Shown: piece by piece, positions 25,020 to 43,949 of the stretch
Numbering within the stretch: the first letter of the stretch is position 1
Layout of the letters: each line of letters begins with the position of its first letter
NCBI GenBank assembly: GCA_963782055.1
Contig: CAWAIF010000003.1
Coordinates: 5,312,001-5,376,000 of the forward strand
DNA from: an uncultured delta proteobacterium
Lineage (GTDB): Bacteria; Myxococcota_A; Polyangia; Polyangiales; Polyangiaceae
Direction: 5' to 3'
Length of the DNA: 64,000 bases
Notes under the pieces: model-generated
The model's database searches: none
What the model saw: only the letters and a program-made list of their open reading frames with translations
What the model was told of the DNA's origin: nothing
Translations under genes and position numbers: made by a program

Positions 25020-25679
25020 CGACGCCTCCCGGAACGGCCACCCGTGCCGGTCCTTCTGCGTCGTTACGAGCAATCACGCGAGGGGGGGGAATGCTTCTGA
25101 GAAACTCGCCTCCCGAGGGGGGGAAAGGTCCTGAGAAACTTTCAGCCCCGAGGGGGGAATCCTTCTGAGAAAAACGTCATGCCGGGGTCCCTAGGTCGTG
25201 AGAACTGACAGTCCGCTCGCGAGCGTGCGGTTTCCATTTCAACGAGTCGCCTCGACCGTAGCTCATTGTTGCTCGTCGCAAGGCCTCGCGAAGCCTGTCC
25301 AGTGCTACTTCGGCAGCGCGACGGCTCTCGGGCGACGTCCGCGTTTCGAAAAGTGCCAGCTCGTACGCCGAGAAGACCTCCTCCAGACTCAGACGAGGGT
25401 CGTCCATTGCCAGGCCTGGCTGCACGCGCGCGCAGAGCTGGCGAACGGTCTCCTGTAGTTCCGCGAGACCGCCGGGCTCGTCCGCAGGTCGACCCGCGGG
25501 CTGCATCCCCGCGAGCCGCTTGAGCATGTGAACCTGCGCGGGAATGGTGTAGGGCGGTGGTGCGGACGCGCCCGCACCAAAGACCCATACCGTTCGAGCA
25601 TGACCCAGCGCGAGCCGGTCAAAGGTCGCCATCGTCTCCCGCCCATCCTTTGCGTGGCCCGAAGGTGCCGACGCGGGTG

Positions 25680-26544: not shown

Positions 26545-27666
26545 TCAGCTCGCCGCCGCCTTGATGCGGCCGACCTCGTGGACAAACCCCGCCACGTCCC
26601 GCGGGAACTCCGGCGAGCCCACCCTTCCGACCACCACCACCCGGCTCGGCTCCTCCCGGTCGGGCTCCCGCATCTTCACGCCGCCGCGGAAACGCTTCCA
26701 GAACAGGTCCGGACCGATGCCCTTCTGGCCGCCGCCGATGCGACCGCGGTGGACGAGGTAGATGTCTCCGGTGTGCGGGTCGCGGGCGAAGGCGCCGCCC
26801 ATCTTCCGGTCCACGCCCTCCAGCGGCGGGTTCACCTCCACCGTGATTTGCAGCGACCTGGCCGGGTCCGGCCGCGAGATGCCGAAGGCGTTCCAGTAGC
26901 GGTTGTCGAGCTTCTTGAAGAGCGCCCACATCTTGAGGGGCGGGGACCAGTGGATGGTGTAGATGCCGCTGCCCCCGTGGTAGCCCACCTTCTGCTGGCG
27001 CTTCCCGGCTGCGACGCCTGCGAGCTGGTCCTGGACGTCCTTCATCGCCTTGCGCACCGTCTTGCCGTCGACGATGAGCTCGAGCTCCGGCATGTCCGCG
27101 TCGGGTGCCGTCGACCGGATGAACGGCGCGCCCAGCTCCATGAGCTCGTCCCAGAGCTCCACGCCGTCGTAGAACGCCGTCGCGTAGTACTCGAGCTCCG
27201 AGGCGGACGGGACGTGGGCCCTCGCGCGCGCCTTCCTGAGGAGCGCTTCGACGGATGCGGCGAAGGGGTCGAGGGCGGCGCCCTGCCAGTGGACCATCCC
27301 GTCGAGCGGAGCCATCAGGCCGGCGGGGGCGAGCCGCCCCGCGCCCATCAGCACCCGCGCCTCGTTCCCACGCTGGAAGCGATAGACGTTTGCGCGGAAG
27401 GAGCCGTCGGCGGCGGGCACGAAGCGCAGGCAGTCGTGGTCCTGCAGCCACTCCAGCGCGGCGGGCTCCGACCGCAGGCCGTCGACCGCGACGAAGGCGG
27501 CCTCAATCTTCGTGGCGTTCCTCTCCAGGGCGGCCCAGAGCGACCACTTGCCGGCGCTCGAGGCCGCCGCCGGCGTGGCGAACGACATCCTCTCGCACCA
27601 GTCGCACGCCTCCTCGAACGCCGTGTGCACCGCGGCCGGGGTGGTGAGAACGCGCAGCTCGCTCAT
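26545..27666 (-). CDS. Protein with degenerate PLD-like N-terminal domain and unknown C-terminal domain
   Basis: FRANVYRF...VLMGAGRLAPAGL aligns to FHxKxYxF...GSxNxTxxGL but lacks catalytic H/K. Confidence 0.65.
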   Translation of the reverse strand: MSELRVLTTPAAVHTAFEEACDWCERMSFATPAAASSAGKWSLWAALERNATKIEAAFVAVDGLRSEPAALEWLQDHDCLRFVPAADGSFRANVYRFQRGNEARVLMGAGRLAPAGLMAPLDGMVHWQGAALDPFAASVEALLRKARARAHVPSASELEYYATAFYDGVELWDELMELGAPFIRSTAPDADMPELELIVDGKTVRKAMKDVQDQLAGVAAGKRQQKVGYHGGSGIYTIHWSPPLKMWALFKKLDNRYWNAFGISRPDPARSLQITVEVNPPLEGVDRKMGGAFARDPHTGDIYLVHRGRIGGGQKGIGPDLFWKRFRGGVKMREPDREEPSRVVVVGRVGSPEFPRDVAGFVHEVGRIKAAAS

Positions 27667-27668
27667 GG

Positions 27669-30029
27669 TTACAGGTCCATTCCCGTGCCCGGCTTCTTGT
27701 GGGCGTAGTAGCGGGTGAAGGTGTCGAAGAACATGTCCGCCCGCACGCGCCAGAAGTCCGGGCTGGCGTTGGGGCCCGGCTTGACGCCCCGCCGCTGGGC
27801 GTCCTCGAGCGCATCCAGCGACGGCGCGTAGGCGCGCTCCCGCTGCCGGAAGTCACGGTTGTGCCCGGCGCTCGGCATGTCGGCGTGGAGCATCTCGTGG
27901 AACATCAGAAACTCCACGACGAAGAGCGGGACGTCCGGCGAGTTCAGGACGCAGTTGAGGGTGATGCTCTTGTCGGAGTAGCGGCAGAATCCCCAGAGGC
28001 TGGTGGTCACCCGCGTGGACCACCGCATGTCGCCGATGAGCGGCGAGCCGTTCGGGAAGTGCTTCTTCACGCTGAGCACGCCGTCACGGAGCGCCGTCAG
28101 GGAGTAGCCCCGCTCACCCTCCGGCCACCCGCGCGGCGCATCGGTCGGCACCACCTTCACCACCTCCGGCGCGGCCGGCGGCTTGGGCGGGCTCAGGATG
28201 TTGTTCAGCTCCCGGCTGACGTCTTCGATGAACGCGTGCTGGTCGTCCCGGTAGACGCCCCGGCACGCCGGTTTGGCGTCCCAGATGTCCTGCATGAACT
28301 TCTGCTGCGCCAGCAGGGCGAGGTTCTGGTCGACCATGGCGCGCGCCACCGTGCGGGGGTCGAACGCCTTCTTCTCCTCGAAGGTGTAGCTGTGGATGGT
28401 GCAGCCCTTCCGCCGCGCGTCGAGCAGGCCCTTGATATCGGCCCAGCGGGGGAGCGGGTCGGGTACGTCGGCGAAGTACTTGCGGAGCAGGTCGCGCGCG
28501 ATGTCTTCGGTCACGTCCTCGGGGACGGACTCGGGCGTGGGGAAGGCGGCGAGGAGCGCGGCGAGCTGCTCGTGCTGGTTGTCGAAGACCATCACCGACC
28601 GGCGCTGCAGGTCGTCCTCGAAGGTCTCCTCCCACGTGTACCAGCTGTGCGGAAGGCACTGAAAGACGCCCTCCAGCTGGCCGCGGACGTTGCTCTGCAG
28701 CAGCCGGTACGCCTCGCGCACCAGCTCCACGGGGATGGGGATGCGCTGGGTGTCCGTCGGTGCCGCGGTCTCCTTCGAGACATCGAGCGGCTCGCTCAGC
28801 ACGTACTCGGCGTCGAGCACGTTGAACTGCTCCCAGGTGTCGAGGAAGGTGACCAGGTACGCCGTCTCGTTGCCGCTCGACTCCTTGCCGCGCAGCGCCC
28901 GGCCGACCATCTGCGCCAGCAGCCCCTCCGAGTGTGTCGGCCGGGCGATGAAGACGGTGCGCGTGTGCGGGGCGTCGAAGCCCTCGGTCAGCATCTCGAC
29001 ATTGACCAGCACGTCGGGCTTCTTCTTCTCCTGGTACCTGACGATGATGTCCTGCGCGTCGTCGCGGCTATAGTCGACGTAGTCCGCGTCCACGCCCTTC
29101 TTCTGGAACTCGCCGGCGAGGGTCTGCGCGTGCAGCGTGTCCGCGGCGAAGACGATGGTCGGCCCGTACGTCCCGCGCTTCTTCAGGTAGTGCTCGACGA
29201 TGAGCTGGTTGCGCGAGGCGTTCTTGGCGAGCCGGCCGAGCACGTTGGGGGCCAGCTCCCCGAAGCGCTCCAGGTGCTTGTAGTCCTCCGGCGTGAAGTC
29301 CTTCTCCAGATTCACGTTGGTCTTCACCGTCTCGAAGCTGGGGGCCGCGAGGATGCCGCGCTCGGTGAGCTCCCGGCGGGTGACCTGGTAGACGACAGTC
29401 TTGTCGAAGAGCGCGCTCAGGCGCTTCTCGTCCTCCTCGTCCGAGCGCACCGGCGTCGCGGTGAGGCCGAGCAGGGGCGCGCCGGCCTTCTTCAGCTTCT
29501 TGAGCAGGTCGTAGGAGCGGGGGGCTGGCGCGTGGTGCGCCTCGTCCAGCACGACGAAGAGGCCGCCGGGCGAGCCGTCCTGGAGCTCCGCGAGGAAGCC
29601 GGTGTTGAGCACCGCGCTCTGCATCGACGAGAAGACGACCTCGTGCTCCGGGCTCACCGCCGACCACTTGCCGAAGACGGAGGAGATGGCGATGAAGTTC
29701 AGCGACTCCTTGCGCGGGTGGGCGACGTTGGCGATGCGCCGGAAGGCGTTGAAGGCCTGGCGGAGGAGACTGCGCCGGTGGGCGAGCCAGAGCACCCGCC
29801 CGCCGTTGGCGATGTGGTTGCTGAGGAGCCAGTGCGCGGCGAGCAGGGTCTTGCCGCCGCCGGTGGGGACGACGACGAGGCCCGCCTGCTTCCTGTTGTT
29901 CAAGAAGTGGGCGCTGAGGCGGTCCTGCGCCGCGAGCTGGTGGTGATGCAGCGTCACGGGGCTCGGCTGCGCGCGCAGCTTCAGGCGGACGTCGTGCTCC
30001 CAGGTGGAGGAATCAGTGGTCGTGATCAT
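27669..30029 (-). CDS. SF2 (Res III-like DEAH) helicase fused to C-terminal YgjP/SprT-like Zn metallopeptidase
   Basis: PTGGGKT, DEAHH, GLTATP, LTEGFD, QMVGRALR; WG.C...ITLN..L...HEMLH...GH...F. Confidence 0.85.
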   Translation of the reverse strand: MITTTDSSTWEHDVRLKLRAQPSPVTLHHHQLAAQDRLSAHFLNNRKQAGLVVVPTGGGKTLLAAHWLLSNHIANGGRVLWLAHRRSLLRQAFNAFRRIANVAHPRKESLNFIAISSVFGKWSAVSPEHEVVFSSMQSAVLNTGFLAELQDGSPGGLFVVLDEAHHAPAPRSYDLLKKLKKAGAPLLGLTATPVRSDEEDEKRLSALFDKTVVYQVTRRELTERGILAAPSFETVKTNVNLEKDFTPEDYKHLERFGELAPNVLGRLAKNASRNQLIVEHYLKKRGTYGPTIVFAADTLHAQTLAGEFQKKGVDADYVDYSRDDAQDIIVRYQEKKKPDVLVNVEMLTEGFDAPHTRTVFIARPTHSEGLLAQMVGRALRGKESSGNETAYLVTFLDTWEQFNVLDAEYVLSEPLDVSKETAAPTDTQRIPIPVELVREAYRLLQSNVRGQLEGVFQCLPHSWYTWEETFEDDLQRRSVMVFDNQHEQLAALLAAFPTPESVPEDVTEDIARDLLRKYFADVPDPLPRWADIKGLLDARRKGCTIHSYTFEEKKAFDPRTVARAMVDQNLALLAQQKFMQDIWDAKPACRGVYRDDQHAFIEDVSRELNNILSPPKPPAAPEVVKVVPTDAPRGWPEGERGYSLTALRDGVLSVKKHFPNGSPLIGDMRWSTRVTTSLWGFCRYSDKSITLNCVLNSPDVPLFVVEFLMFHEMLHADMPSAGHNRDFRQRERAYAPSLDALEDAQRRGVKPGPNASPDFWRVRADMFFDTFTRYYAHKKPGTGMDL

Positions 30030-30050
30030 CGTCTTGCCTCCTGAGGACGA

Positions 30051-30066
30051 TGCCAGCGCCGTGCCA
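30051..30066 (-). promoter_or_regulatory. Sigma54 (-24/-12) promoter
   Basis: TGGCAC-GGCGC-TGGCA just upstream of AGGAGG RBS of the helicase gene. Confidence 0.75.
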
Positions 30067-30167
30067 ACAAGTGACCCCCTGATTTCCCGCCAACAAGGGC
30101 TCGCTGCCGTAAGGAACCTACCGAGATCGGAAGCTTCCTTCTCCCCCAGTACATGTCGGCCAAACAG

Positions 30168-31865
30168 CTACCTGAGGCCCGACAGCGACACGCCTCGCAG
30201 CGCCGCGGCAAACTCGGAGCACGTGTCGAAACGCTCGTCAAAGTCCGGGCTCAGCGCTCGGAGGAGCGCATCGTTCTGCGGCTCGCTCAATCGCGCGAAC
30301 GTCCGCGGTCGGTAGGGCGCCGTGAAGACCCGGCCCTCGAGCATCGAGGAGAAGACGAGCGCCAGGGAATACTGGTCGGACTTCTTGTGAGCCTGGGCGC
30401 CCTCCCGCTGCTCGGGTGCGGCGTAGGCCGGGGTGTATCCGCGTGGGTGCGTCGCCAGGACGGTGTGCTTCCCGACCGTGTTCTTCCCAGCGGTGCCCTT
30501 CAGCGCGATCCCGAAGTCCGTCACCCGCACGTTCCAGGTGGCTCCCCGCGTCTCCACGAGAATGTTCCCCGGCTTCACGTCCTGGTGGATCACGCTGCAG
30601 CGGTGCGCGAAGTCGAGCCCGGCCGCCACCTGCGTGACCACGTCCACCGCACGCCCGATGCTCAGCTCCCCGATCTCCGTGAGCACGTCCTCGAGGGACC
30701 GGCCTCCATGCTGCAGGACGAGGTAGGTCCCGTGGATCGGGTCACGGCCGTAGTCCTTGTAGGCACAGATGTTCTGGTGGCTCAGATCGTACGCCACGCC
30801 AATCTCCTCCCGCAGTGACTCGTGGGCCTCGGGCAGCCCCAGCTTGACCACCACACGGTGCTCGGGCAGGTCTACGCGCGTCGCTTCGAAGACTCTCCCA
30901 AACCCTCCTGCGCCAAGCTCACGCCCGAGCTTGTACTTACCGCCGAGGAGCGGCGCCGGCGGGTTGGTTGGTGCGGGGGATGCGGGGGCCGCCGCCGGCG
31001 CACTCGGTGGCGCGGCAGGGGGCCGTTCCGGACGCCTCCCCCTCGGCCGTAGCTCCGGCACGAGCGTATCCACGCGCGTGTTGCCCTGAGCGTCGGCAAG
31101 GCGCTGCCACACTTCACTCGGGGGTAGCTCCACGACATCGGCGATCAGCCGCACCAGCGATGGCGAGCGTCTCGCCCCCGCCGAGGTAAGTGATCCCAGC
31201 ACGTCCCGAGGCACGTCCCCCAGCTCGTCCGGTGGCCACCTGGCATCGAATACGTTCCGCAACAGGGTTCGGCCATGCGCGACACGCAGTCGCTTGCCGG
31301 CCGAGGCGGGCGTGATGCCCAGCAGCTCCGCGAGCCAGCCGATGAACGCTCCGGATCCTCGAACGGACACGGCGCGTACAGCCGCGAGAAGCTCCACAGC
31401 GGAGAATCGCCTCCGGCCGTCACGGAACGCGGCGTCGTCGTGGACCACTGGCCTGTCGCGCTCTTCCCCCTCGTCCTCGTCGTCGTCCTCGTCGTCGTCC
31501 TCGTCGTCGTCCTCGTCGTCGTCGTACTCCACCAGCTCGGGGAACGTGTTTCCAACGAGCGCGTTGCCGTGGGTGTGGTTCAGGCGCTGCCGGACGGTCC
31601 GCATGCTGAGACCCGCTGCAACAGCTATCTCCCGGTCGAGCGCCGCCTCGCGCGCCAAGGCCACCGTGAGCGGCCCGAGGGTGTCCACGTCCGTCGGCCA
31701 ATCGTCCCACAGCGCGTTGCGCACCAGCATGTTGCCGCGTGCGCTACGAATCCGGCTACGGATAGCGCGCTGGGACAGACCGGTGACCGCCGCTAGGAGA
31801 GGGGCATAGTCTTCGTCCAGATCCTCCACCTCGGAGCAGCGCAGGTCGCCGATTCCGGTACCCAT
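30168..31865 (-). CDS. Hanks-type Ser/Thr kinase with four N-terminal HTH-like repeats and acidic linker
   Basis: GAGGFG, VVVK, HQDVKPGNIL, DFG, APE; repeats of A...G.....V..RL....GN..V. Confidence 0.88.
   Translation of the reverse strand: MGTGIGDLRCSEVEDLDEDYAPLLAAVTGLSQRAIRSRIRSARGNMLVRNALWDDWPTDVDTLGPLTVALAREAALDREIAVAAGLSMRTVRQRLNHTHGNALVGNTFPELVEYDDDEDDDEDDDEDDDEDEGEERDRPVVHDDAAFRDGRRRFSAVELLAAVRAVSVRGSGAFIGWLAELLGITPASAGKRLRVAHGRTLLRNVFDARWPPDELGDVPRDVLGSLTSAGARRSPSLVRLIADVVELPPSEVWQRLADAQGNTRVDTLVPELRPRGRRPERPPAAPPSAPAAAPASPAPTNPPAPLLGGKYKLGRELGAGGFGRVFEATRVDLPEHRVVVKLGLPEAHESLREEIGVAYDLSHQNICAYKDYGRDPIHGTYLVLQHGGRSLEDVLTEIGELSIGRAVDVVTQVAAGLDFAHRCSVIHQDVKPGNILVETRGATWNVRVTDFGIALKGTAGKNTVGKHTVLATHPRGYTPAYAAPEQREGAQAHKKSDQYSLALVFSSMLEGRVFTAPYRPRTFARLSEPQNDALLRALSPDFDERFDTCSEFAAALRGVSLSGLR
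31471..31524. repeat. 12-bp microsatellite encoding (DDDE)n linker
   Basis: (TCGTCGTCGTCC) about four copies. Confidence 0.85.
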
Positions 31866-31939
31866 GGCACCACAACATACAACAGACCGTGGCGGGAGTG
31901 GTGCACCCGGAGGCGGGAAACCGAGCGGCGAGCCGGACG

Positions 31940-32431
31940 CTACCGCCAGCCCGCACCCCGACGAAGCCGCTCCACCAGCTTCTTGAGCCGGATGGTCACC
32001 TCCGCACCCGTCCTGGGGTCGCCGTCTTCCTTCGCGATGTCGTTCCGTGCACGCACGAAGGAAAGGACCGCGGAGTCCGCGCTGAGGAGATCATCGACCA
32101 GTGGTTTCAGCTCAGCCGGGACCGGGCGCGCAGTGGGCCCAGAGAAGGCTGCCCGCAGACCGTGAGCCAGCGCCCCGGCCATAGCCTTCCGGAAGCTCGG
32201 CTTCCCTCCGCCGCGAGCCGGCGCGAGATAGTACTCTGGACCTCGGCCCTCCCTGGTGGCGAGCTCGAGCACGACAGCGCGAAGGAACTTCTCCAGCGCC
32301 GTGCTCGCCTTCACCATCCGACCAACGAGATGGCTTCCCGTTTTCGCTGGTGGGCCGTCCTCCCCGCGGGAAAGACGCTCGAGAAGGACACGCGACGACT
32401 CCTCTATTTTCGTTCCACGTGCATCCGGCAT
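31940..32431 (-). CDS. Small helical protein, HEPN-like with His replaced (RNDIAK)
   Basis: ALEKFLR...RARNDIAK. Confidence 0.5.
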   Translation of the reverse strand: MPDARGTKIEESSRVLLERLSRGEDGPPAKTGSHLVGRMVKASTALEKFLRAVVLELATREGRGPEYYLAPARGGGKPSFRKAMAGALAHGLRAAFSGPTARPVPAELKPLVDDLLSADSAVLSFVRARNDIAKEDGDPRTGAEVTIRLKKLVERLRRGAGWR

Positions 32432-32447
32432 GGCTCCCTCGAGCAGC

Positions 32448-33116
32448 TCACGGCGTGGTGGTCGTGGTTTGCGTCATTTCCACGAACGAGGTTGGGTCAA
32501 TCACGGGCCCGGTGACCGCGTAAAAGTCGAGAGTACTCGGGGCCGTGCCGATCAGCGAGCAGTTGTTGCCGGACTTGATATACCAGTTCGTCGGAGAGAG
32601 CTTGCTCCCCACGAGCATCAAGTCGTTCTGCGAACAGCCCGCGACAACGGTCGCCTGGGATGCGTACTTCGGCACGTAGGAAGCAGCCCCGCAGGAGGGC
32701 GCCGACGAGACGTCAACGACCGGGTTGGCGCACTGCGCGTCAACGAAGTACAATCCTGTCGGTGACGCGCCGGGTAGACACCGTGTCTTGCCATCCCCGG
32801 CAAGCGCTGGGCTGCACGCCTCCTTCCTCTGCGAGTCCCACCAGCCGGCGAAGTACTTCGTGACCTGCTTTGAGCCGTCGACCCCGGTGGTCATCGTGGT
32901 GGTGTACCGAGCCTTCAGCCGCGTCCCATCCGTCTCCCCGACCCCCGACGCCCCAGAGTCGCCAGAGGAGCCCGCGTCGGGGCTCAGGCCGGCCTCACCG
33001 TTCAGCCCGTTCGCCCCCGGCGGGCCCTCCGGTCCAGCCGGACCTGCCGGTCCAGTCGGCCCCTCAGGACCGCTGCACGCCACGAGCGCTACCATCACGA
33101 AACCCCACCTATTCAT
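32448..33116 (-). CDS. Lipoprotein with collagen-like Gly-X-Y repeats and Cys-rich domain
   Basis: VALVAC lipobox; GPEGPTGPAGPAGPEGPPGANGLNGEAG; GTRLKARY...DGKTRCLP. Confidence 0.75.
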   Translation of the reverse strand: MNRWGFVMVALVACSGPEGPTGPAGPAGPEGPPGANGLNGEAGLSPDAGSSGDSGASGVGETDGTRLKARYTTTMTTGVDGSKQVTKYFAGWWDSQRKEACSPALAGDGKTRCLPGASPTGLYFVDAQCANPVVDVSSAPSCGAASYVPKYASQATVVAGCSQNDLMLVGSKLSPTNWYIKSGNNCSLIGTAPSTLDFYAVTGPVIDPTSFVEMTQTTTTTP

Positions 33117-33189
33117 ATTCCCACCTCCGCCAGCGCCCAACTCATGCCGGTGCGCCATTCGTCGCCGAGCGACTCTCCGCTACTCGCCG

Positions 33190-34359
33190 TCATGAGGAGG
33201 CGCCAGACGCCCGGCGCGACGTCGGTGCATGGATGCGCGACACGCAGAAGAACAGCTGGTCGAGCGTCAGGAACAATCGCAAGGCGTACGCCGGCTTCTT
33301 GAGCTCTTCGTCCGGGCCGACTCCGTGGAGGAAGGCGTGACGGCTCGGCGGCACATCGCCCGCGCCGAGCTCGAAGCTCGCGTAGTAGTAAGCCTCGAGG
33401 TACTGCGCGAACGCCTCGGGCAGCAGGGCGGTGTACCCGCCCACGCTTGCGCGTACCCGGCCGACAAGATTCCGGCGGAGCTCCGGCGCTCGCGGGCTTG
33501 CGCTCTGGCCGTTGTAGAGGTGGCGGAGGACCCCCTCCACCTTCGGCATGATGGTGCTCGCGGCGGCCACGTACTCCCCGGCCGCGAACAAGCGGGCGCC
33601 CGTCCGCAACACGTCGAGGTGCGGCGCAAACGCAGGCCTCGATGCCCAACCGTCCACGATTGCCGGCAGCTGGGGCCCCACCTCGTCGACAATGCGCTGC
33701 TCAGTCTTGTCGTAGTCCCAGTCATTGACGAAGTCTTGATAGAGGGCCATCGCCAGTGCCTGCGTAAGGCGAGTGAACGGGAACCAGCCCGCGCGGGCCA
33801 TCTTCCCAAGCATGTCCGGCGTCATGCGGACACGGTCGCGGAGCATGAGCGCCGCGTGAAGAGAGCCAAGCAGCACGCCGATGTCACCCAACGGCTTGAA
33901 CTGGTCGGCGCCGGGAGCGTGCGCGGTGAGGTCGAAATAGAAGCCCCTGCGCCAGCCGTGCTGGAAGATGTAGGCAAAAGCGCCGCGGTCGGGGAACGAA
34001 AAACCTGGGATACTGGCCTTGGCGATGTCAGCGACGTCGTCGAGGCCCACAGTACGTCCGGCCTGTATCGCGACCTTCCCAATCACGTCGAGCTGCACGG
34101 GTGGGTTCAGTATAAGGGTCGCTGACGTACCATCCAAGATGCTGACAAAGGCCGTCTGAATGTCCTCGGGCCGAACGAGGCCAGCGTGACCGATGACGGC
34201 GTCGAAGAACGAGTCGAGGAAGGTGTAGAGGATGGCGCCGTCGTCGGAGGTGAAGAACCCCCGACCCAAGACGCCAAGCTGCTCCCCCGGCCGCGCAGCC
34301 GTCAGGGCCATGCCGGCCGGCGCTCCCGGCAGCGTGAAGCCGCGGCGTACGAGATTCAT
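33190..34359 (-). CDS. Putative HEPN-domain protein coupled to hsdS
   Basis: ATGA overlap with hsdS; KVEGVLR and SRHAFLHG (RxxxxH). Confidence 0.65.
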   Translation of the reverse strand: MNLVRRGFTLPGAPAGMALTAARPGEQLGVLGRGFFTSDDGAILYTFLDSFFDAVIGHAGLVRPEDIQTAFVSILDGTSATLILNPPVQLDVIGKVAIQAGRTVGLDDVADIAKASIPGFSFPDRGAFAYIFQHGWRRGFYFDLTAHAPGADQFKPLGDIGVLLGSLHAALMLRDRVRMTPDMLGKMARAGWFPFTRLTQALAMALYQDFVNDWDYDKTEQRIVDEVGPQLPAIVDGWASRPAFAPHLDVLRTGARLFAAGEYVAAASTIMPKVEGVLRHLYNGQSASPRAPELRRNLVGRVRASVGGYTALLPEAFAQYLEAYYYASFELGAGDVPPSRHAFLHGVGPDEELKKPAYALRLFLTLDQLFFCVSRIHAPTSRRASGASS

Positions 34360-35612
34360 CCGGCCGCCTCGGACATCCCGAGCTGCCGCTTGCCGACCGA
34401 CGCAGTCAGCTCACCCCGAAACGCCAGCTGCACCAGCGTCCCAAACAAGTCGTCGCTCGCGCCGCGTGCATCGGCAAATCGTTCCCTGACCTGGTAGGTC
34501 TGCCAGACAAGCACCGAAAAGCGCTTCTGCAGCACGATGGGCGGGACGGGCATCTCCATCGAGCGCACCTTCTCCATCGAGATATTGAGCATCGACCCGC
34601 TCGTCCCCGTGGCGCGCTTCGTAAATTCGCCACGAAAGCGCCCATGCCCAAGGAGGAACTTCAGGTACTCCGGCGTCGCAAGGCGCCCATCGGCGACGAT
34701 GCGCCAGAGCTTGTCCGGCAAGAACAGCCTCGGCTCATCTTGCTCGACGAGGCAGCATGCGGCGACCAGTTCGCGCGTGTTCGCTCGGCTAAAGAGGAGG
34801 TCACCGCGGCGGGGCGTGACGAGCTCGCGGTCGACGTCCGTCGCTGCGACGGCCTTGTGCTCCTGGGGCCGGAAGTACCCCGACGTCACCGCGCTCACCT
34901 TGAGCACACCGTATTCGTCGCCCGCTCGCTCCCGAGCCTCCCCGTTCGCGCTCCAGCCGGCCTCAAAGCGGTCGACTGCCTGCCCCAACGCCTTCACCGG
35001 CCACCCCTTCGGGTTCGTCACCGGGTCCCCGAACATCTCCAAAAACGCCGACCGCAGCAGCTCCTCGGTGAGCGCGATGGCCTCCTTGCGCTTGCGCCGA
35101 ACCGCGTCGGCCTTGTCGAGGATGTCGGCGATGCGGCGCTGCTCGGGGAGCGGGGGTGTTGGCACCTCCAGCGCAAGTAACGCCTCCTTTCGTACGGACG
35201 CCTGGTTCACCCATTGATTGCACAGGAGCGCGAAGCGACCCTGCTTCCATTGCCAGTTCAACCAACGCGCGAGGAACCTCGGCTCGAGAGCGCGGGGCTT
35301 TACGCGGACGCGGGTGAAGTGATTGCTGAAGACGACCGGCTCTTGGTGCCCACCAAAGACCGCCGACTTGCCGACCAGCTCGGGACTGTTCGTGTTGTTA
35401 AACATCACGTCGTCCGCCCTCAGTCCGAAGCGGTCAAGGTCCGCCAACGACCGCGGTACACGACGTGGCGTTCCGAGGTCAATATGTCCCTCGGTGTCGA
35501 CGTTGTTCATGCGGAGCTGAATGACACCATCCGCAGCCTTCTCGCCACAGGCAAAGCCCGTCTGCAGGTCGTCGATTAGCTCAGCGAGCGGGCGAGCGGA
35601 GGACGTTGTCAC
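34356..35612 (-). CDS. hsdS: Type I R-M specificity subunit
   Basis: Two TRDs; [38 protein letters not shown]. Confidence 0.95.
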
Positions 35613-37111
35613 AGCATCCCCTCCAGCGCCTTCAGGTCCTTCGCAATCTCCGCCTCGAGCTCGCGCAGCTTCCCGAGGATGACCTTCGGCGGCTCGTACT
35701 TCACCTCCTCGTGCACGGCCTCCTTGTAGCGGTTGATGGAGAGGTCGAAGTTCTTCTCCCGAATCTCGGCAACCGGGACCATGAAGTGCTTCGCGGTCCG
35801 GTCGGCGTCCTTCTTCGGGTTCTTCTTCCGCCAGCGTTCGAGCGCCCCGGGCAGGTCGTTGTCCTGGACCGGGTCGCGCTTGTCGTCGAGGGAGAAGCCG
35901 TCGGCCTGCACGTCGTAGAAGAAGACGTGGTCGGTCTCGCCGCCCTTCGTGAACACGAGAATCGCCGTCGACACGCCGGCGTACGGCCGGAACACGCCCG
36001 ACGGCAGCGAGATGACCGCCTCGAGCTGATTGTCGTCGACGAGCATCTCGCGCAGCGCCACGTGCGCCTTCGATGAGCCGAAGAGCACGCCGTCGGGGAC
36101 GATGGTCGCGCTCCGCCCACCCTTCTTCAGCATCCGCAGGATGAGCGCGACGAAGAGGAGCTCGGTCTTCTTTGTCTTCACCTTGTGCGTGAGCGAGGGG
36201 TGGACGTCCTCGGCGTCCAGGCTGCCCTTGAAGGGCGGGTTGGCCAGCACGACGTCGAAGTGGCGCTCCGCCTGCTGCGGGAACTTCTCCGGGAAGGAGT
36301 TGGAGAGAGTGTCCTGGTAGTGGATGTCCGGGTTGTCGACGCCGTGGAGCATCAGGTTCATCGACGCGATGCGGAGCATCGTGCTGTCGAAGTCGAACCC
36401 GTGGAACATCTCCTTCTGGATGTGCTTGCGGTAGGGCTCCAGCTTGTCGCCGGTGTAGACCTTGTCGCCGGTGTCCGTCGTGTAGATGCCCTTGGGCGAG
36501 CTGTACTTCTCCAGGAGGTACTGCATGACGCCGACCAGGAAGCCGGCGGTGCCGCAGGCGGGGTCGCCCACGGTCTCGGTGGGCTTGGGGTCGAGCATCT
36601 CCACCATGAAGCGGATGATGTGGCGGGGCGTGCGGAACTGGCCGTTGATGCCCGCCGTCGTCAGCTTGCTGAGCAGGTACTCGTAGAGGTCCCCCTTGGC
36701 GTCGCCCTCGGTGATGGGGAGGGCGTCAATCATGTTCACGGCGGAGACGAGCAGGCTCGGCTTCTGAATCATGAGCTGCGCGTCGGCCATGTACTCGCCG
36801 AAGGTGGTGCCCCCGTTCAGCTTCCGGAAATGCGGGAAGACGCCGTCGCGCACCACCTTGAGCATCTCCTCGGCCTTGAGGTGCTTGAAGTGCGACCACC
36901 GGAGCTGCTGCTCCCGCTTGCCGAAGACGGGCGTGAAGGGCTTCTTGGTGCGCGCGGCGCGTGCCTCGTTCGTCGTCTCCTTCACGTCGAGCAGGCGCGC
37001 GAACATGAGGAAGGAGATTTGCTCGATGACCGTGAGCGGGTTGGTGATGCCGCCGGTCCAGAACTCTTCCCAGAGTTTGTCGATGTCGCTTCTCAGCTTG
37101 CCGGTAATCAT
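35609..37111 (-). CDS. hsdM: Type I R-M m6A methyltransferase
   Basis: [23 protein letters not shown]. Confidence 0.97.
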
Positions 37112-40100
37112 GCGTGCTTGCTCTCAGGGGGCGGCGTCGAGGGCGACGCCTTGCGTGGCTGGAAGGCCTGAAGGATGACGAGGAGCTCGTCGACCTGGCC
37201 CTTCTCGGTGAACAGGCCGTCGATACTGCTGGCGCTGAGGGTTGTAAACGGCGGCTCGTAGAGGCGGTCGATGTCGATGCCGCCGTTCTGGGCGATGTGG
37301 TGCTTGAGCAGCTGCAGGAAGCGGAGCTGCTGCGCCGAGAGGTGCGGGTGCTTGTGCACGAAGCCGGTGAAGGCCGCGTTCACCGCCTCCGGGTCCAGCC
37401 CCACGAGGCCGCGGAGCACGTCGGCGAGCGACTGCTTGGTCTCCGGCTGGACGAGGTGCCGGAGGTTTGCCTTGTCGTCCACCTCGAGGACCAGCTTCGC
37501 GAGCCCGTCGAGGTCCTCGTCGCGCACCGCCTTGCCGGCGCGGATGCGTTGCAGGGTGGGGTCGCTCATGAAGTGCTCGCGGAGCACCTTCTCGACGCGT
37601 TGCCGGTAAGCGACCTCGTCGAGCCCCTCCAGCTTGGGTATGTGGTCGGCGCCGAAGGCGCCCTCGTCGGCCACGTCGTAGACGCTCGGGAGGAGCCGGC
37701 CGCCAGACGGCTGCTGCTGGTACTTCATGATGCCGCGCAGCTCGGTGCGGACCCATTCGAGCTTGGGCACGGTGACGGTGGCCCAGAAGTCCTTGCTCTC
37801 GACGGCCTTGATGGCCTCGGTCTTCGCCTTGACCGGGTTCTGGTTTCTCATGAGCAGGGCGACGGCCGCTTCCACGCCAGCCTTCAGGTCGGCGGCGCTC
37901 GACGACCCCTTGAGGACGGCGCCCTCGAGCCGGGTCACCAGAAGGTCGAAGCGGTAGGCGTCCTCCTCGCCCCGGATGTTGCGCCACTGCATGAGCGGCG
38001 CCGCGATGGAGAGGAGGTCCGCCTTGGTGGCCGCGGCGAACTGCGCGACCGTATCGCGGTTGGACAGCAGCTCCAGCTCCTTGCGCCTGTCGCGCACGTC
38101 GATGGCGTTGGAGTCCATCGCGCCGCGGATGTCTCCGACGAGCAGGTCGACCGTTTCCTGAAAGACGGGCTCCTCCATCTTGTCGAGGGCGGCCTCGGCG
38201 ACGGCGATGCGTGTCTCGAACAGCTGCTGCAGGAGAGACTTCTGCGGCGACGGTTGCTTCTCCTTGTACTTCTCCTCGAAGAACTCGAAGTTCTTGCCGT
38301 GGTCGAAGATGACGAACTCCGTCTTGTTCTTCCCGGGCTCGAAGAGGTCTCGGCATAGCCGGGTGCCGCGGCCAATCATCTGCCAGAACTTCGTCGGGGT
38401 CTTGACCGCCTTGGCGAAGACGAGGTTGACCACCTCGGGGACGTCGATGCCGGTGTCGAGCATGTCGACCGAGATGGCGATGACCGGGTCGGAGTCCTTG
38501 CTCTTGAAGTCGTCGATGAGCTGGTCCGCGCGCGGCTCCCGGTTGTCGATGACCCGGCAGAAGCTGCCGCCGTACTGCGGGTACATCTCGTCGAAGAGGC
38601 CGGCGAGGTGCACGGCGTGCAGGTGGCTCTTGGCGAAGAGGATGGTCTTGCCCAGGCGGCTGCCCGTGGCGTCCCGGATGCCCTCGTCCATGAGGCTCCG
38701 CAGGACGATGCGGCTCGTGTCCTTGTTGAAGACCTCGCGGTCGAGCTGCCCTGCGTCGTATTCGACGTCCTCCGGCGTGTCCTCCTGCTCCTCCAGCTCG
38801 GCGCGCTGCGCGCCGGACATCTCGGAGTACTTGAAGCCGCCCTCCCGGAACTTGGAGGTGAACTTCCGCACCCGGAAGGGCACGAGGAAACTTTCGCGCA
38901 CGGCCTCGTCGTAGCTGTAGTTGGAGGTGGGGTCGTTGTGCTCGCAGCCGAAGAGCTTGAAGGTGTCGCGGTCGGCGTACTTGAGGGGCGTGGCGGTGAG
39001 GCCTACCTGCAGCGCGTCGAAGTACATCGAGAGCTGCCGGTACTTCTTGTAGATGCTGCGGTGCGACTCGTCGAAGATGACCAGGTCGAAGAAGCCGACG
39101 TCGAAGGTCTCGTAGCACGCCAGCATCGCCGGGTAGGTGGCGAGGTAGATGCGCTTGTCGCGCTCGGAGGAGGTGGTGCTGCCGACGATGACGCGTGGCT
39201 CGCCCGGCAGGAACTCCTTGAAGACGTTGTTGGCTTGCTTGCGTAGCTCCCGCCGGTCGCAGAGAAAGAGGATGCGCTTCGCCCACCCGGCGCGCATCAG
39301 CAGGTCGCAGAGGGAGATGGCGACGCGCGTCTTGCCAGTGCCCGTGGCCTGCACCAGCAGCGCTCGCCGGAACTTCTGCTCGAAGCGCTCGCTCACGCGG
39401 GTGATGGCCTCGAGCTGGTAGATGCGGTCGGCGATGGCGAGGTCGGGGGCGACGGTGGCGAGGGGCTTCTTGTTCTTCCGCTGGTGCAGCAGGTACTCGA
39501 GGCTGTCCTTGGAGTAGAAGCCGTAGACCTTGCGGGGCGTGTAGCCCTGCGCGTCGTCCCAGACGTGAATCTCGATGCCGTTGGTGTAGAAGATGACCGG
39601 GCGCTGGCCGGTCTCCTTCTCGAGGCAGGTGGCGTAGATGCGCGCTTGCTCTTGCCCCTCGCGCGCGTCCTTGGAGGTTCTCTTCGCCTCCACCACCGCG
39701 AGCGGCTTGCCGTCGTCGCCGTAGAGAACGTAGTCGGCGTAGCCCTCGCGTGACTCGGTGGGCATCGTCGAGAGCTCCACCTCCTGCTTCACCAGGGCGG
39801 TGTCCGCGCCGTTGGGGCCGACGTCCCACCCCGCCTGGGTGAGCTGCTCGTCGATGAGCCGGTGGCGCGTCGCCTCCTCGCTCAGCTGCAGGATGTTGGC
39901 GGCTCGCTGGCCTTCGAGACGCAGGGCCGCGAGCTGCTCCTTCGACTGCGCGACGAACTGCTCCGCGGCTTCCCGCTGGCGGCGCTCCTGCTCCAGGTCG
40001 GCGAGCACCTTCGCGAGCTGCGCCTCGTGCCGGGCCGCCTTCTCGAGCGCGGCCTTCTTCTCCTTCTCGAGCGCCGCGGCGTCGGGAGGCGCCGGCGGCT

Positions 40101-40527
40101 CCTTGTAGGTGGGGCAGTCGGCGCGCTGCCCGCCATCGACGCGAAGGAAGACCCACTGCGCGATGTCGAAGGTCTCGCGCAGGCACCGGAGCGCGTCGTG
40201 CGCGCTCACGGGCTTGCCGTGGGCGGCCTTGTTGCCCGTGATGCGCACGAGATGGAGCTTGTCGAGCACGACGGCGGGCACCGCGCTCATGAACGGCTGC
40301 TCGTTGAGCAGGTCGTAGATGTTGTCGCTGTACGGGCGCGGCAGTCGGTAGGTCTCGTAGATGATGGCGACGACGGTCTCGGCGAACCTCCGGAGGTTGA
40401 AGAGCGCACTCCCCGGGTCCGGCCGGGCGTACGCCTCCGCGAACCCGCCCAGGTCGGCGAGCTCGGCGTGTCTGCGTCGCAGGAACTCGAAGTTCTGCGA
40501 CTTCATGAGCGCGTCCACCGGGGCCAT
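37108..40527 (-). CDS. hsdR: Type I R-M restriction subunit (EcoAI/EcoEI-like, DUF4145-like N-terminus; start may be 40506)
   Basis: ADYVL...VEAKR nuclease, [25 protein letters not shown]. Confidence 0.95.
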
Positions 40528-40555
40528 GCGCAGCCCTTGAGCACGTCCCGTTCCA

Positions 40556-42061
40556 TCAGCTCTCCACCTCGTACTTCTGGAGCCAGTTCTTGAGGGTCTG
40601 GTAGCTCGGCAGGCCGACGAGAGACGCGGCTTTGGTCATGTTGTCCGGCGCCTCCTTCACGGCGCGCGAGAGGTAGTGGCGGGCGACATCTCCGAGCAGG
40701 TCCGCGAGCTTGAAGCCGTCGCCGAGCGGGCGGCCAAGCACCTCGTCGTCCGCGCCGCCTGGGACGGTGCGCAGGGCATCGCGAGCCTCGGCCTCGTCGA
40801 CGATGGGCCCCTTCGACCAGATGAAGGCGCGGCGCAGCGACGCGTCCAGCTCCCGGACGTTGCCCGGCCAGCGGTACCGGAGAAGAAGATTCCTCGCCCC
40901 GACAGAAAGCTTCTTCTGCACCGCGCCAGGCCGCTTGCCGAGCTCGGTGTTGAGCTTGTCGAGGAGGCGGTCGATGAGGAAGCCCACGTCCCCTTCGCGC
41001 GCGCGGAGCGGCGGGACCTGCAGCGGCAGGATGCTCAGGCGGTAGTAGAGGTCCTCGCGGAAGCGACCTGCACCCACTTCCTCGAGGAGGTTGCGGTTGG
41101 TCGCGGCGATGACGCGGACGTTCACCGAGATGTCCATCTTGCCGCCCACCTGGCGCACCTTCTTCTCCTGCAGCGCGCGGAGCAGCTTCACTTGATGCTG
41201 CGGCGCGAGCTCGCCGACCTCGTCCAGGAAGAGCGTGCCGCCGTCCGCCTGCTGGAAGTAGCCGGTGTGGGGCGCGGTGGCGCCGGTGAAGGAGCCCTTG
41301 GTGTGGCCGAAGAACTGCGACTCGAAGAGCTCACTGGGGATGGCGCCGCAGTTCACCTCGGTGAAGGGGCCGGCCCTGCGCGGGCTCTCCGCGTGTATCG
41401 CCGCGGCGAGCAGCTGCTTGCCGGTGCCCGACTCTCCCTCGATGAGGATGGCCTCCGAGAACGGCGCGGCCTGGCGGGCGCGCCGTACCAGGCCCTTCAT
41501 CACCTCGCTCCGGTGCAGGATGTCGCCGAACCTCGGCTCCTCCGGGCGCTGCTCCTCGGCGAGGCGGGCGAGGTCCTCGCTCGTCTGCTGCACCGCCGCC
41601 GGGATGAACTCCGCCGCCAGCTCGAAGGGCACCTCCACGGTGGCGACCCCCTTCTGCCTGGACGACTCGATGAGCTCCGCCTCGAAGCGGGTCTTGGCGA
41701 CGATGATCCAGATGGCCGCCATCGCCGGCGTGCCGGGGCTCAGGTGGAAGGTGAGCCGGGTCTTCTGCCCGTACTTCGCGAGCGTCCACGCGACCGCCGC
41801 GGTGACCGCGCCGTAGATGTCCCTGTAGTGGGTGGGAGAAGAGAGCGGGTACTTGCGGACGACCACGCTCGCCTTGGTCTTCTTCTTCACCCAGCGCTCG
41901 AAGCCGCCGAGCTTGTCCGCCGGCATGTCGTTCAGGAGCACGACGTGGTCGAAGGTCCGCGCGGCGAGGGCCTGCCCGATGGGCCCGAGCTCGCCGGGCG
42001 CGTCGCTCTTGGCCGCGTTGACGTCCGCCGTTCCTATCCACGCCAGAAGAACGCCCGCCAT
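40556..42061 (-). CDS. Sigma54-dependent activator with RtcR/CARF-like N-terminal sensor domain
   Basis: LAWIG..D, FHLSPGTPAM (CARF-like); GESGTGK, GSFTGA, LFLDEVGE, RFREDLYYRL, WPGNVREL, C-terminal HTH. Confidence 0.88.
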   Translation of the reverse strand: MAGVLLAWIGTADVNAAKSDAPGELGPIGQALAARTFDHVVLLNDMPADKLGGFERWVKKKTKASVVVRKYPLSSPTHYRDIYGAVTAAVAWTLAKYGQKTRLTFHLSPGTPAMAAIWIIVAKTRFEAELIESSRQKGVATVEVPFELAAEFIPAAVQQTSEDLARLAEEQRPEEPRFGDILHRSEVMKGLVRRARQAAPFSEAILIEGESGTGKQLLAAAIHAESPRRAGPFTEVNCGAIPSELFESQFFGHTKGSFTGATAPHTGYFQQADGGTLFLDEVGELAPQHQVKLLRALQEKKVRQVGGKMDISVNVRVIAATNRNLLEEVGAGRFREDLYYRLSILPLQVPPLRAREGDVGFLIDRLLDKLNTELGKRPGAVQKKLSVGARNLLLRYRWPGNVRELDASLRRAFIWSKGPIVDEAEARDALRTVPGGADDEVLGRPLGDGFKLADLLGDVARHYLSRAVKEAPDNMTKAASLVGLPSYQTLKNWLQKYEVES

Positions 42062-42093
42062 GGTCCACCGGGCAGAGTAACAAGTGTTCTGGC

Positions 42094-42190
42094 AGTAGAA
42101 GTGTTCTTCTTCTACTTTCCGCGCGTTCTGTCAGAACAACCGGGCAAACCGCTACTTCTCACCGCGCGGCGCGCTGGCACGGGACGTGAA
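42094..42190 (+). promoter_or_regulatory. Two palindromes (candidate activator sites) and sigma54-like promoter
   Basis: AGTAGAAG-N7-CTTCTACT (42094-42116), GTTCTG-T-CAGAAC (42125-42137), TGGCAC-GGGAC-GTGAA (42175-42190; -12 imperfect). Confidence 0.6.
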
Positions 42191-42202
42191 ATAGGGGTCG
42201 GC

Positions 42203-43879
42203 ATGAACACGCAAGCCCCTCTCACCGTCCTGGTCGATGTCGACGCCGACGCCGTCGAAGCCCACATCCGCGACCACCGCGCCGACGCCCTCGCGGTGTT
42301 CGCCCCGCTCAACGAGTCGCAGCGCACCGGCCTGGTCACCGACGCGTGGTCCATCGGCCTGCGCGCGCTCACCAACGCCTACAAACAGGCGGAGGAGTCG
42401 CGCCTCTCCGACATCAGCAGGACGCTGAAGGAGGACCTGGACAAGCAGCTCGACGCCTACATCGAGCGGCAGCAGGACGGCTTCGTCCAGGTGCTCGCCC
42501 GCTACTTCGACCCGCAGGACGGCCAGGTGGTCGCGCGGCTCGAGGGCTTCCTGCGCGACGAGGGCGAGCTCTCCCGGACCATGGCCCGCTTCCTCGCGCC
42601 GGAGCACGGCGCCCTCGCGCAGACGCTCGCCCGCGAGGTGGGCCAGAACAGCCTGCTAGTGAAACGGCTCAGTCCGACCGACAGCGAGGGAGTGGTCTTC
42701 CTGCTGGAGACCAAGCTGCGCGAGGCGCTCGCCGAGAACAAGCGGCAGGTCTCCCACGCGCTCGACCCCGTCGCCGAGGATGGCGCGGTCGCCCGGTTCC
42801 TGCGCGCGCTCCGGCAGGAGCTGGAGAAGGCGGACAACGACCGGAGCAAGCAGCTGGCGCTCGCGACCAAGGCGCTCGACGCCAACGACGAGAGCTCTCT
42901 CCTCAGCCGGCTGATGCGGGAGACGGCGGAGGCGAAGAACGCGTTCGTCGCCGCGATGAACCCGGAGCTCCCGAGCTCGCCGATGGCGGTGCTCAAGACC
43001 ACCCTCTCCACGCTGCTCCAGGACCACGTGAAGTCGCAGCACGAGGTGATGGTGCTCATGCAGGAGCGGCAGACGAAGTTCGAGCAGGACGTGCGCGAGT
43101 CGCTCGTGCGGCTCGAGGAGCGCAAGCGCGGGGACGCCAAGTCCACCCGTGGCGGCTTCACCTACGAGGAGGCGGTCTTGCGCTTCGTCCAGCACACCGT
43201 CCAGGGGGCGCCTGTCACCGTCGACACGACGGGCAGCACCGTCGGCGCCAAGCCCGGCTGCAAGGTGGGCGACCAGGTCGTCCGCTTCACGCCGGAGAGT
43301 ATCTACGCCGGCGGCGCGCTCGTCATCGAGGCGAAGCACGATTCCAGCTACTCGGTCACCAAGGCCCTGCAGGAGCTGGAGGTGGCGCGCGGCAACCGCA
43401 CCGCCGGCGCGGGACTGTTCGTGATGGCCCGGAGCCACGCCCCGGCGGCGTTCCCCGCGTTCGCGCGGTACGGCAACGACATCCTGGTCGTGTGGGACGA
43501 GGAGGACGAGGCGACCGACCCCTACCTGCAGGCCGCGGTCTTCCTGGGCGTGGCTCTCGCCAGCCGGCAGCGCCGGCCCGACGACGCCGGCGATATCGAG
43601 GCGCTCGCGGACATCGAGCATCGCATCCAGAAGCAGCTCGAGCGGCTCGACCGGATGCGCAAGCTGGTCGAGTCCATCCAGGGCGACGCCAAGAAGCTGG
43701 GCGACGAGGTCGACAAGGGCGGCAAGGCGCTGGGGGTCCTGCTCAAGAACGCGAAGTCGACCCTCAAGGCGCTGAACGTCGAGCTGACCGAGGCGGAGGA
43801 GGCGAAGTCGGAGCCGGTGATGCTCCCCGTGGCGTCCCTCGCCGAGGCGCGGACTGCGCTTGCCAGCGCCGGGGAGTGA
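42203..43879 (+). CDS. Long coiled-coil protein with central PD-(D/E)xK-like nuclease domain (RmuC/DUF2130-like architecture)
   Basis: G..YEEAV, VGDQVV, VIEAKH; heptad-rich flanks. Confidence 0.7.
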   Translation: MNTQAPLTVLVDVDADAVEAHIRDHRADALAVFAPLNESQRTGLVTDAWSIGLRALTNAYKQAEESRLSDISRTLKEDLDKQLDAYIERQQDGFVQVLARYFDPQDGQVVARLEGFLRDEGELSRTMARFLAPEHGALAQTLAREVGQNSLLVKRLSPTDSEGVVFLLETKLREALAENKRQVSHALDPVAEDGAVARFLRALRQELEKADNDRSKQLALATKALDANDESSLLSRLMRETAEAKNAFVAAMNPELPSSPMAVLKTTLSTLLQDHVKSQHEVMVLMQERQTKFEQDVRESLVRLEERKRGDAKSTRGGFTYEEAVLRFVQHTVQGAPVTVDTTGSTVGAKPGCKVGDQVVRFTPESIYAGGALVIEAKHDSSYSVTKALQELEVARGNRTAGAGLFVMARSHAPAAFPAFARYGNDILVVWDEEDEATDPYLQAAVFLGVALASRQRRPDDAGDIEALADIEHRIQKQLERLDRMRKLVESIQGDAKKLGDEVDKGGKALGVLLKNAKSTLKALNVELTEAEEAKSEPVMLPVASLAEARTALASAGE

Positions 43880-43949
43880 CGCGCCAGCGGCGCCGTCTCG
43901 GCGAGCGCCGCGTCAACATTTGCACCGCCACCACGTCTACAATCAGACC

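Follow-up and report, generated by a model that had tools for sequence, protein, structure and literature searches.

We analysed positions 26,545 to 43,879 of a 64,000-nucleotide stretch of DNA (the window) from an uncultured delta proteobacterium of the Polyangiaceae, where a sigma54 activator gene heads a type I restriction-modification (R-M) system. On the minus strand the activator is followed, all in the same direction, by hsdR, hsdM, hsdS, a gene for a protein of 389 amino acids (aa), a collagen-repeat gene, a 163-aa gene, a Ser/Thr kinase gene, a helicase-metallopeptidase gene and a 373-aa gene. A divergent gene for a 558-aa coiled-coil protein, a predicted nuclease, begins at 42203 on the plus strand. 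The argument turns on the following features:

40556..42061, minus: CARF-AAA+-HTH sigma54 activator, RtcR_PspF2 family, 501 aa, GSFTGA loop (PADLOC, hhalign)
37108..40527, minus: hsdR, type I restriction subunit with an N-terminal DUF4145 domain (Pfam; PADLOC REase_I, E 5e-276)
35609..37111, minus: hsdM (Pfam N6_Mtase, HsdM_N)
34356..35612, minus: hsdS (Pfam Methylase_S)
42203..43879, plus: coiled-coil protein with a predicted PD-(D/E)xK nuclease domain, aa ~314-455 (conservation, alignment-based model)
27669..30029, minus: SF2 helicase with a C-terminal YgjP-like metallopeptidase domain (Pfam ResIII, Helicase_C, YgjP-like; weak PADLOC type IV REase matches)
40541..40555, minus: sigma54-type promoter TGGAAC-N5-GTGC, starting at the first base past the activator stop, 13 nucleotides (nt) before the hsdR ATG (pattern, comparison, genome rank 2)
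42175..42189, plus: sigma54-type promoter TGGCAC-N5-GTGA (-12 variant GA), 13 nt before the nuclease ATG (comparison, genome rank 8)
30052..30066, minus: internal sigma54-type promoter TGGCAC-N5-TGGC, 22 nt before the helicase ATG (comparison)
42077..42110, no strand: tandem palindrome 1, predicted enhancer of the divergent promoter and operator on the activator's own promoter (top genome match, 49.5 bits)
40884..40917, no strand: tandem palindrome 2, within the coding part of the activator gene, predicted hsdR enhancer, 328 base pairs (bp) upstream of the hsdR promoter (genome rank 3)
30109..30142, no strand: tandem palindrome 3, predicted enhancer of the helicase promoter 42 bp further on (15.5 bits, genome rank 5)
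42074..42082, minus: extended -10 element of sigma70 type (TG-T-TACTCT) predicted for the activator gene; it overlaps the first half-site (TAnnnT conservation)

We consider it likely that the RtcR_PspF2-type activator, the three 34-bp palindromes and the three sigma54 promoters together form a defence regulon. A ligand would bind the CARF domain and the activator would then fire the three promoters, with the divergent coiled-coil nuclease, the type I R-M run and the internal helicase-peptidase unit as targets. At the level of sequence, comparison shows the family membership of the activator, the three promoters and the three palindromes, as well as their conservation, spacing and joint loss. 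A three-promoter regulon of this known, predicted kind is strongly supported in its cis wiring by these comparisons.

The activator and its relatives

The activator matches the PADLOC model PDLC01995 (RtcR_PspF2--CARF_AAA_HTH) over aa 4-500 with 604 bits (E 6.7e-182), other PADLOC models score it far lower (RtcR 227 bits, PspF1 181 bits), and it belongs to this known CARF-AAA-HTH family. Residues 54-148 match CARF4 at E 3e-11, along with other CARF models. We then compared a profile of 12 N-domains of the activator family with a profile of 8 RtcR domains: hhalign paired the N-domain with the RtcR CARF at 93.6% (E 2e-7) and 21% identity, and the strand-4 motif region is common to both (HLSPGT and HITTGT, respectively). 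These matches bear out the CARF-like N-terminus on which an earlier interpretation of the bare letters (the sequence-only reading) had relied. The protein is not RtcR proper: NCBIfam NF038308 gives 314 bits against a cut-off of 650, and PF06956 (RtcR) has no match in the window or in the genome, which is 97% complete. A sequence search of solved structures with the CARF alignment returned nothing useful. In Pfam the AAA+ domain is matched at E 2e-65 (PF00158) and the C-terminal HTH weakly; the Walker A/B, GSFTGA (residue 256) and R-finger motifs could all be located.

In 120 homologues we compared the sigma54-contact loop: it is GAFTGA in 79, GSFTGA in 15 and GSFSGA in 7; 8 were unparsed and the rest carry other loops. 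In the literature passages available to us, FleR, a working activator, has a GSFTGA loop (PMC10696123), the motif is treated as functional (PMC11999139) and it stands among the variants expected to retain activity (PMC4641369). By this analogy GSFTGA is a working variant of the loop. Two related loci, L004 and L009, carry activators with the loops GAATGV or GVATGT; the palindrome within the gene and the sigma54 site downstream are nevertheless retained there.

Myxobacteria such as Sorangium, Polyangium and Minicystis supply the closest named homologues of both the activator and the divergent gene. In a profile search of 301 genomes the AAA+ domain was matched in every genome, and only the top loci were taken from it. 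Of the 64 related loci for which 3 kb or more of downstream DNA is available, 40 have a co-directional R, M or S match there. The genome contains one rpoN match and ~43 matches to sigma54 activators. As the sequence-only reading had stated, the window holds no rtcB, whose sole genome match lies ~1.5 Mb off (rtcA was not searched for).

Promoters and tandem palindromes

The sequence-only reading placed the activator at the head of the hsdRMS run after a gap of about 30 bp, which we measured as 28 nt from stop codon to hsdR ATG, and named sigma54-type promoters before the divergent gene and the helicase-peptidase gene. Both sites are present (42175-42189, plus; 30066-30052, minus) and both are conserved, as detailed below. 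The list was incomplete, with a third and stronger site at 40555-40541 before hsdR. We searched the zone from -30 to +90 of the activator stop in 84 non-identical related loci (this window included) and found the strict -24/-12 pattern in 54 of them. On the opposite strand only 2 of the 84 loci matched, and among 3924 random windows 12 did (0.3%). On the nuclease side the strict divergent site occurs in 15 of 21 nuclease-bearing loci, always ending in TGA and never on the opposite strand, and by eye five of the remaining six show near matches. Seven of these 21 loci were retrieved using the nuclease as query; the activator-only search, which recovers the linkage in 12 of 16 close loci, gives the better estimate of its rate. 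Loci with other divergent neighbours also show a strict divergent site (16/76). The GA at -12 is found in all 15 strict nuclease-side matches, and the hsdR-side promoters of the same loci mostly have GC, a conserved difference.

We ranked the 852 sigma54-like sites of the genome above 9 bits, using a matrix from whose training set this window and locus L044 had been left out. The hsdR site, the strongest of the three, came second, the divergent site eighth and the helicase site 407th. The ATG lies 13 nt past the -12 element in 14 of 17 cases on the hsdR side and in 13 of 18 on the nuclease side, and therefore the hsdR and nuclease mRNAs would be nearly leaderless. No terminator-like site was detected in the gap between activator and hsdR by a sigma70/terminator scan that itself performs at chance level. 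Read-through from the activator promoter, giving basal R-M expression, is about an even bet.

Each of the three promoters is accompanied by a 34-bp element that consists of two palindromes (4-N6-4, with a 20-bp period). Since the same tandem element accompanies each of them, dependence of the promoters on the activator, as the sequence-only reading supposed, is likely, and the activator is very probably the protein that binds the palindromes. Palindrome 1 (GTAA-N6-TTCT-N6-AGAA-N6-TTCT) sits 64 bp before the divergent sigma54 site. With matrices trained on the same loci, the element was found upstream of the activator ATG in 21/21 close loci and 58/72 distant loci, compared to 4/1405 random windows. 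We also scanned both strands of the 7.58 Mb genome with a close-clade matrix built without this window and L044. Rank 1 was 42076 (49.5 bits), rank 2 its reverse reading, rank 3 40918 (18.6 bits), rank 4 C3:5600592 (17.1 bits) and rank 5 30108 (15.5 bits), ahead of the helicase promoter. Thus the three palindromes of the locus are three of the four best distinct matches genome-wide. The rank-4 match is probably due to chance; it falls in a coding region and the nearest sigma54-like site is weak and 446 bp off.

The spacings of 42, 64 and 328 bp between palindrome and promoter recur in relatives, and three related loci (L077, L080, L090) carry additional palindrome-promoter pairs downstream. 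Across loci the enhancer-promoter distances cluster at 53-54, 63-65, 74-79, 89-90, 97-100, 111 and 131 bp. With clusters grouped by eye and 5 of 40 rows excluded as weak or off-pattern, the helical phasing of these distances is only suggestive (p ~0.02). Two palindromes had been described earlier upstream of the nuclease gene. Both exist (42095-42115 and 42125-42137); the conserved element is 42077-42110 and overlaps the first only. We dropped 42125-42137 as a core enhancer, as by eye it is kept only in the few closest loci.

Palindrome 1 may have a second role. The pattern TAnnnT stands at the -10 offset of the activator gene in 23/23 close loci and its last T, outside the palindrome core, is invariant; with a shifted offset, a few bases ahead of the start codon, it appears in 31/58 distant loci. 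The overlap of a palindrome half-site with TAnnnT fits autorepression of a sigma70-type promoter, and the copy at 42077-42110 probably also represses the activator's own promoter in this way.

Palindrome 2, within the activator gene, is very probably the hsdR enhancer, judging from the following comparisons. In leave-one-out scans the best in-gene site lay 359-368 nt before the gene end in 20/20 complete close genes. None of 100 synonymous shuffles reached the observed score in 17 of these genes, in the other three 4, 4 and 5 did, and for the copy in this window none of 100 did. The copy is, by this measure, under synonymous constraint. A relaxed promoter match after the stop codon was found in 64 of the 70 complete genes with an intragenic copy and in none of the 11 without (strict: 53/70 and 0/11), and copy and promoter are 324-335 bp apart in 48 of the 53 strict cases. 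In a FastTree phylogeny for which the motif columns had been masked, the 11 double losses are spread over four branches; seven of these copy-less loci retain the divergent promoter. In all 81 complete genes entered this count, and the joint-loss comparison covers 80 of 525 genome loci. Five of six plasmid matches served as a test set outside the training. All five show the intragenic copy, four of them strongly, with scores of 19.3, 8.4, 23.4, 30.7 and 25.6, reached by 0-1 of 200 shuffles; three have a promoter 325-327 bp downstream, a fourth has a near match after the stop, and the weak case has instead gained an intergenic copy 64 bp ahead of its promoter. The 42 other sigma54-activator matches of the genome have palindrome scores of at most 4.2, compared to 21.1 here. 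On one plasmid with TerY-type cargo (L154:10589-10700) the palindrome within the gene is degraded, and a strong copy in the intergenic region lies 64 bp before the sigma54 site, an apparent case of enhancer turnover.

The helicase site is weak alone and therefore comparative evidence was needed for this promoter. Close helicase homologues occur in 15 other places, of which 13 have usable upstream DNA (two truncated ones were dropped). Three of them lie behind a CARF activator (L176, L177 and L179, the last repeating L044). A sigma54 site with a palindrome-like element precedes all four activator-linked helicases, this window included, and none of the ten unlinked ones, i.e. those with no CARF activator in the 6-20 kb fetched; one unlinked locus has a weak match 328 nt away. 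In the linked loci the element lies 42-63 bp before the sigma54 site with scores of 18.3, 11.7, 9.8 and 3.1. Two of the ten unlinked helicases are 65% identical to this one and thus as near as the linked homologues. No upstream sigma54 site was found for more distant helicase homologues. At L137 a sigma54 activator stands beside a helicase homologue; it is of an unrelated type without a CARF match, and we set it aside.

Proposed targets and accessory genes

The divergent gene belongs to a family of 520 homologues and matches no Pfam, PADLOC or NCBIfam family. D357, E376 and K378 are invariant in 74 sequences, and long coiled coils flank the domain. The alignment-based model has a mean predicted local distance difference test (pLDDT) score of 75.5 and replaced a single-sequence fold that reached only 44.6. 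It aligns with McrC over 120 residues (Z 9.1, root-mean-square deviation 3.1), and other restriction-fold nucleases also align. Foldseek gave nothing at E <= 0.001, with restriction-fold proteins as its top rows, and a sequence search of solved structures with the nuclease alignment gave nothing useful. In alignment and model the product of 42203-43879 shows the PD-(D/E)xK core fold and the D...(D/E)xK residues and is a predicted nuclease. If the proposed regulon is right, this family, nameless in the libraries, becomes a strong candidate for an anti-phage effector. An open reading frame at 43860-44837 (plus) follows the nuclease gene and may be co-transcribed with it; it has no match in four libraries and no counterpart among the related loci.

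The R-M genes are intact and adjacent, with an EcoKI-like HsdR. An R-x2-GN-x3-H type motif in the DUF4145 region of HsdR (40390-40110) is found in 32 of 32 aligned HsdR N-termini; we take DUF4145 to be a HEPN-type domain. The remaining genes of the run are:

33190..34359, minus: probable HEPN-type protein (motif only), 389 aa, accessory (invariant residues)
32448..33158, minus: collagen-repeat, lipoprotein-like passenger gene (Pfam Collagen and DUF7481, both below cut-off)
31940..32431, minus: small HEPN-like protein, 163 aa, motif histidine absent here (RxxxxH in 2/3 homologues)
30168..31865, minus: Ser/Thr kinase with a repeated N-terminal region (Pfam Pkinase, E 1e-30)
26545..27666, minus: 373-aa helicase partner (no Pfam, PADLOC, NCBIfam or PHROG match)

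The sequence-only reading called the product of 33190-34359 a HEPN protein and let it feed the sensor. The motif part of that call holds: E275, R340 and H345 are invariant in 44 sequences and presumably form a HEPN-type motif (Rx4-6H with an upstream E). The call stays at the motif, with no Pfam HEPN match; an atlas lead through a homologue pointed to DUF4209 (0.79), and hhalign to two DUF4209 stretches was not significant. The proposed feed to the sensor found no backing, as the gene has no homologue in 92 related loci, nor in the fuller loci L176, L177 and L179, and it is not a conserved partner of the activator. If DUF4145 is an active RNase, it would be a steadier source of signal than this accessory gene.

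The small HEPN-like gene travels with the kinase and the helicase in 4/4 activator loci that carry the helicase, and the 373-aa gene follows the helicase in several loci. By eye the N-terminal half of the 373-aa protein resembles a phospholipase-D-type nuclease domain minus the catalytic histidine; no library confirms this. The collagen-repeat gene was not found in related loci. The cargo behind the activator varies in a scan of 55 of 59 cluster representatives; most of it is without a match, and the matches include AriA/Gabija-like ATPases and the OLD, SIR2-like, Fic and PDC families.

Signal, alternatives and known systems

Several observations weigh against a three-promoter regulon with an RtcR-like signal. 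Palindrome scores of 15-17 bits can arise by chance, as the rank-4 match in an unrelated coding region illustrates, and in six of the 70 loci with an intragenic copy even the relaxed pattern finds no promoter up to 90 nt from the stop. The loci are kin, so Fisher values are overstated. The helicase site is weak by itself (rank 407/852), the four linked helicase loci are closely related to one another, and in one of them the palindrome reaches no more than 3.1. At -12 the divergent promoter reads GA where the consensus is GC, and we found no published demonstration that this variant functions, the available literature passage giving the consensus only. Finally, the CARF domain shares just 21% of its residues with that of RtcR and the NCBIfam RtcR score is 314 instead of 650 bits; the ligand may therefore differ from RtcR's.

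By analogy the ligand may be RNA with a 2',3'-cyclic phosphate end, e.g. nicked tRNA, and we give this about equal odds for and against. The available part of PMC10159003 reports that the RtcR CARF binds tRNA halves and nicked tRNA bearing 2',3'-cyclic phosphate. RtcR is the closest tested relative and has the strand-4 motif region in common with the activator, and the conserved R/N/H motif of DUF4145, presumably of HEPN type, points the same way. The same wiring could also answer to a cyclic oligonucleotide, a modified or phage-made nucleotide or DNA breakdown products. With the low CARF identity, no linked RNA-repair genes and a variable, mostly DNA-directed cargo, we rate such another signal as a serious possibility somewhat short of an even chance; 'a phage-specific nucleotide' is offered as an alternative in the passages of PMC4012209. 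Rather tentative, and in our view doubtful as a whole, is the widest version: a portable regulon gated by RNA damage, in which nicked tRNA would turn on restriction, nuclease and helicase-peptidase via three enhancers, one of them double-coded in the activator gene and kept across phyla, the weaker sites (the -12 GA promoter and the degenerate helicase enhancer) would act as later thresholds and recruited genes would gain their own enhancer-promoter pair.

The sequence-only reading had only second-line effectors induced. In that arrangement R-M would be a constitutive first layer, the signal would come from the HEPN gene, and induction would be confined to the nuclease and helicase units. The gap without a terminator-like site would permit read-through and the HEPN motif is invariant across its family, but of the three sigma54 sites that of hsdR is the strongest and has an enhancer to itself, and the related loci lack the HEPN-like gene. 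The arrangement is improbable; with its own promoter and intragenic enhancer hsdR likely belongs to the regulon and restriction is not a separate first layer. The activator might also be an autorepressor only, with the sigma54 sites driven by other activators of the genome, or relics. The loop is GSFTGA, not GAFTGA, the genome has further activators in plenty and palindrome 1 shares bases with the -10 element of the activator gene. The earlier interpretation had itself named the GSFTGA loop as a possible refutation of activation, which does not hold given the GAFTGA and GSFTGA homologues and the loop in FleR and the loop-variant papers. In addition, one type of palindrome accompanies all three promoters at spacings that recur in relatives, and we regard pure autorepression as very unlikely. 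We give equally little credence to the intragenic palindrome being a side effect of protein conservation. It does fall in a conserved AAA+ lid peptide, and shuffled codons of A/T-rich activator genes also score above 0; yet the real DNA beats 100/100 synonymous shuffles in 17/20 close genes, genes without the downstream promoter have lost the motif as well, and the other sigma54 activators of the genome are without it.

The circuit, which the sequence-only reading did not recognise as described, had been proposed before, and the regulon favoured here has close precedents. The available passages of PMC4012209 (Makarova et al. 2014) place RtcR-like proteins beside R-M systems and propose 2',3'-cyclic-phosphate RNA or a phage nucleotide as ligand. 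Whole-length family match, domain order and proposed ligand agree with our locus, as do the adjoining type I R-M and the HsdR with DUF4145, an architecture listed in its supplement; promoters, binding sites and targets are unmapped in those passages and no divergent nuclease target is mentioned. In the passages of PMC11090510 (Bell et al. 2024), RtcR homologues are proposed to transcribe CoCoNuT superoperons with type I R-M first, binding upstream activating sequences, and with HEPN feedback. The RtcR homologue at the front, R-M next and the long co-directional run are alike. Internal superoperon promoters are expected there to be independent of RtcR, whereas the internal promoter here bears the activator's palindrome, and the coiled-coil nuclease here is divergent and fits no RmuC or ShdA model. 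None of the CoCoNuT genes (the McrB/McrC coiled-coil tandem CnuB/C, CnuH, TerY-P) is among the 16 proteins scanned between 21875 and 46527. ShdA of Shield, as given in PMC11090510, likewise combines a long coiled coil with a PD-(D/E)xK nuclease beside type I R-M. However, no RmuC match was found in 74 members of the nuclease family, there is no PADLOC match and no N-terminal membrane helix is evident in the model; the fold matches contain no RmuC/ShdA row, which does not exclude RmuC/ShdA.

The RtcR of E. coli/Salmonella (rtcBA) is also a CARF-AAA+-HTH sigma54 activator with a divergent target and a homologous sensor. Unlike it, our activator stays below the NCBIfam cut-off, has no PF06956 match and no RNA-repair genes, and is flanked by defence targets to either side. 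Passages of PMC9765219 show that sigma54 elements within genes are common in Myxococcus, and the Nla28 sites of Myxococcus xanthus described there are similar in lying within coding sequence. In contrast, the enhancer here is part of the gene of the activator itself, keeps a fixed position across loci of several phyla and would serve a promoter that abuts the activator's stop codon. We found neither the intragenic enhancer nor the helicase promoter in the literature searched, and the sigma54-regulon passages available make no mention of restriction genes. RtcR-like CARF proteins have been proposed since 2014 to switch on restriction via sigma54; we found no test of this, and no published promoter or binding-site map or test of this activator family, in a search that covered subscription literature only thinly. 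The locus and its relatives supply testable parts, namely a binding motif, a set of three promoters and controls in the form of natural losses. If the proposed regulon is real, type I restriction can be induced by a signal, and with the in-gene enhancer the activator gene would by itself be a complete switch for any defence genes that come to lie behind it.

Both flanks of the locus carry traces of mobile elements. A SIR2-like gene (21875-25629, minus) lies downstream of the helicase unit and of a ~242-aa gene (25680-26408) and is co-directional with them. An IS21-type element, made up of a helper gene and a transposase (23451-25073), apparently splits the SIR2-like gene, whose C-terminal part gives a weak SIR2_2 match. 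Immediately to the right of the island we observed an IS66 transposase (45178-46527, plus) and, beyond it, by eye, RadC-like and DUF932-like genes of types usual in mobile islands.

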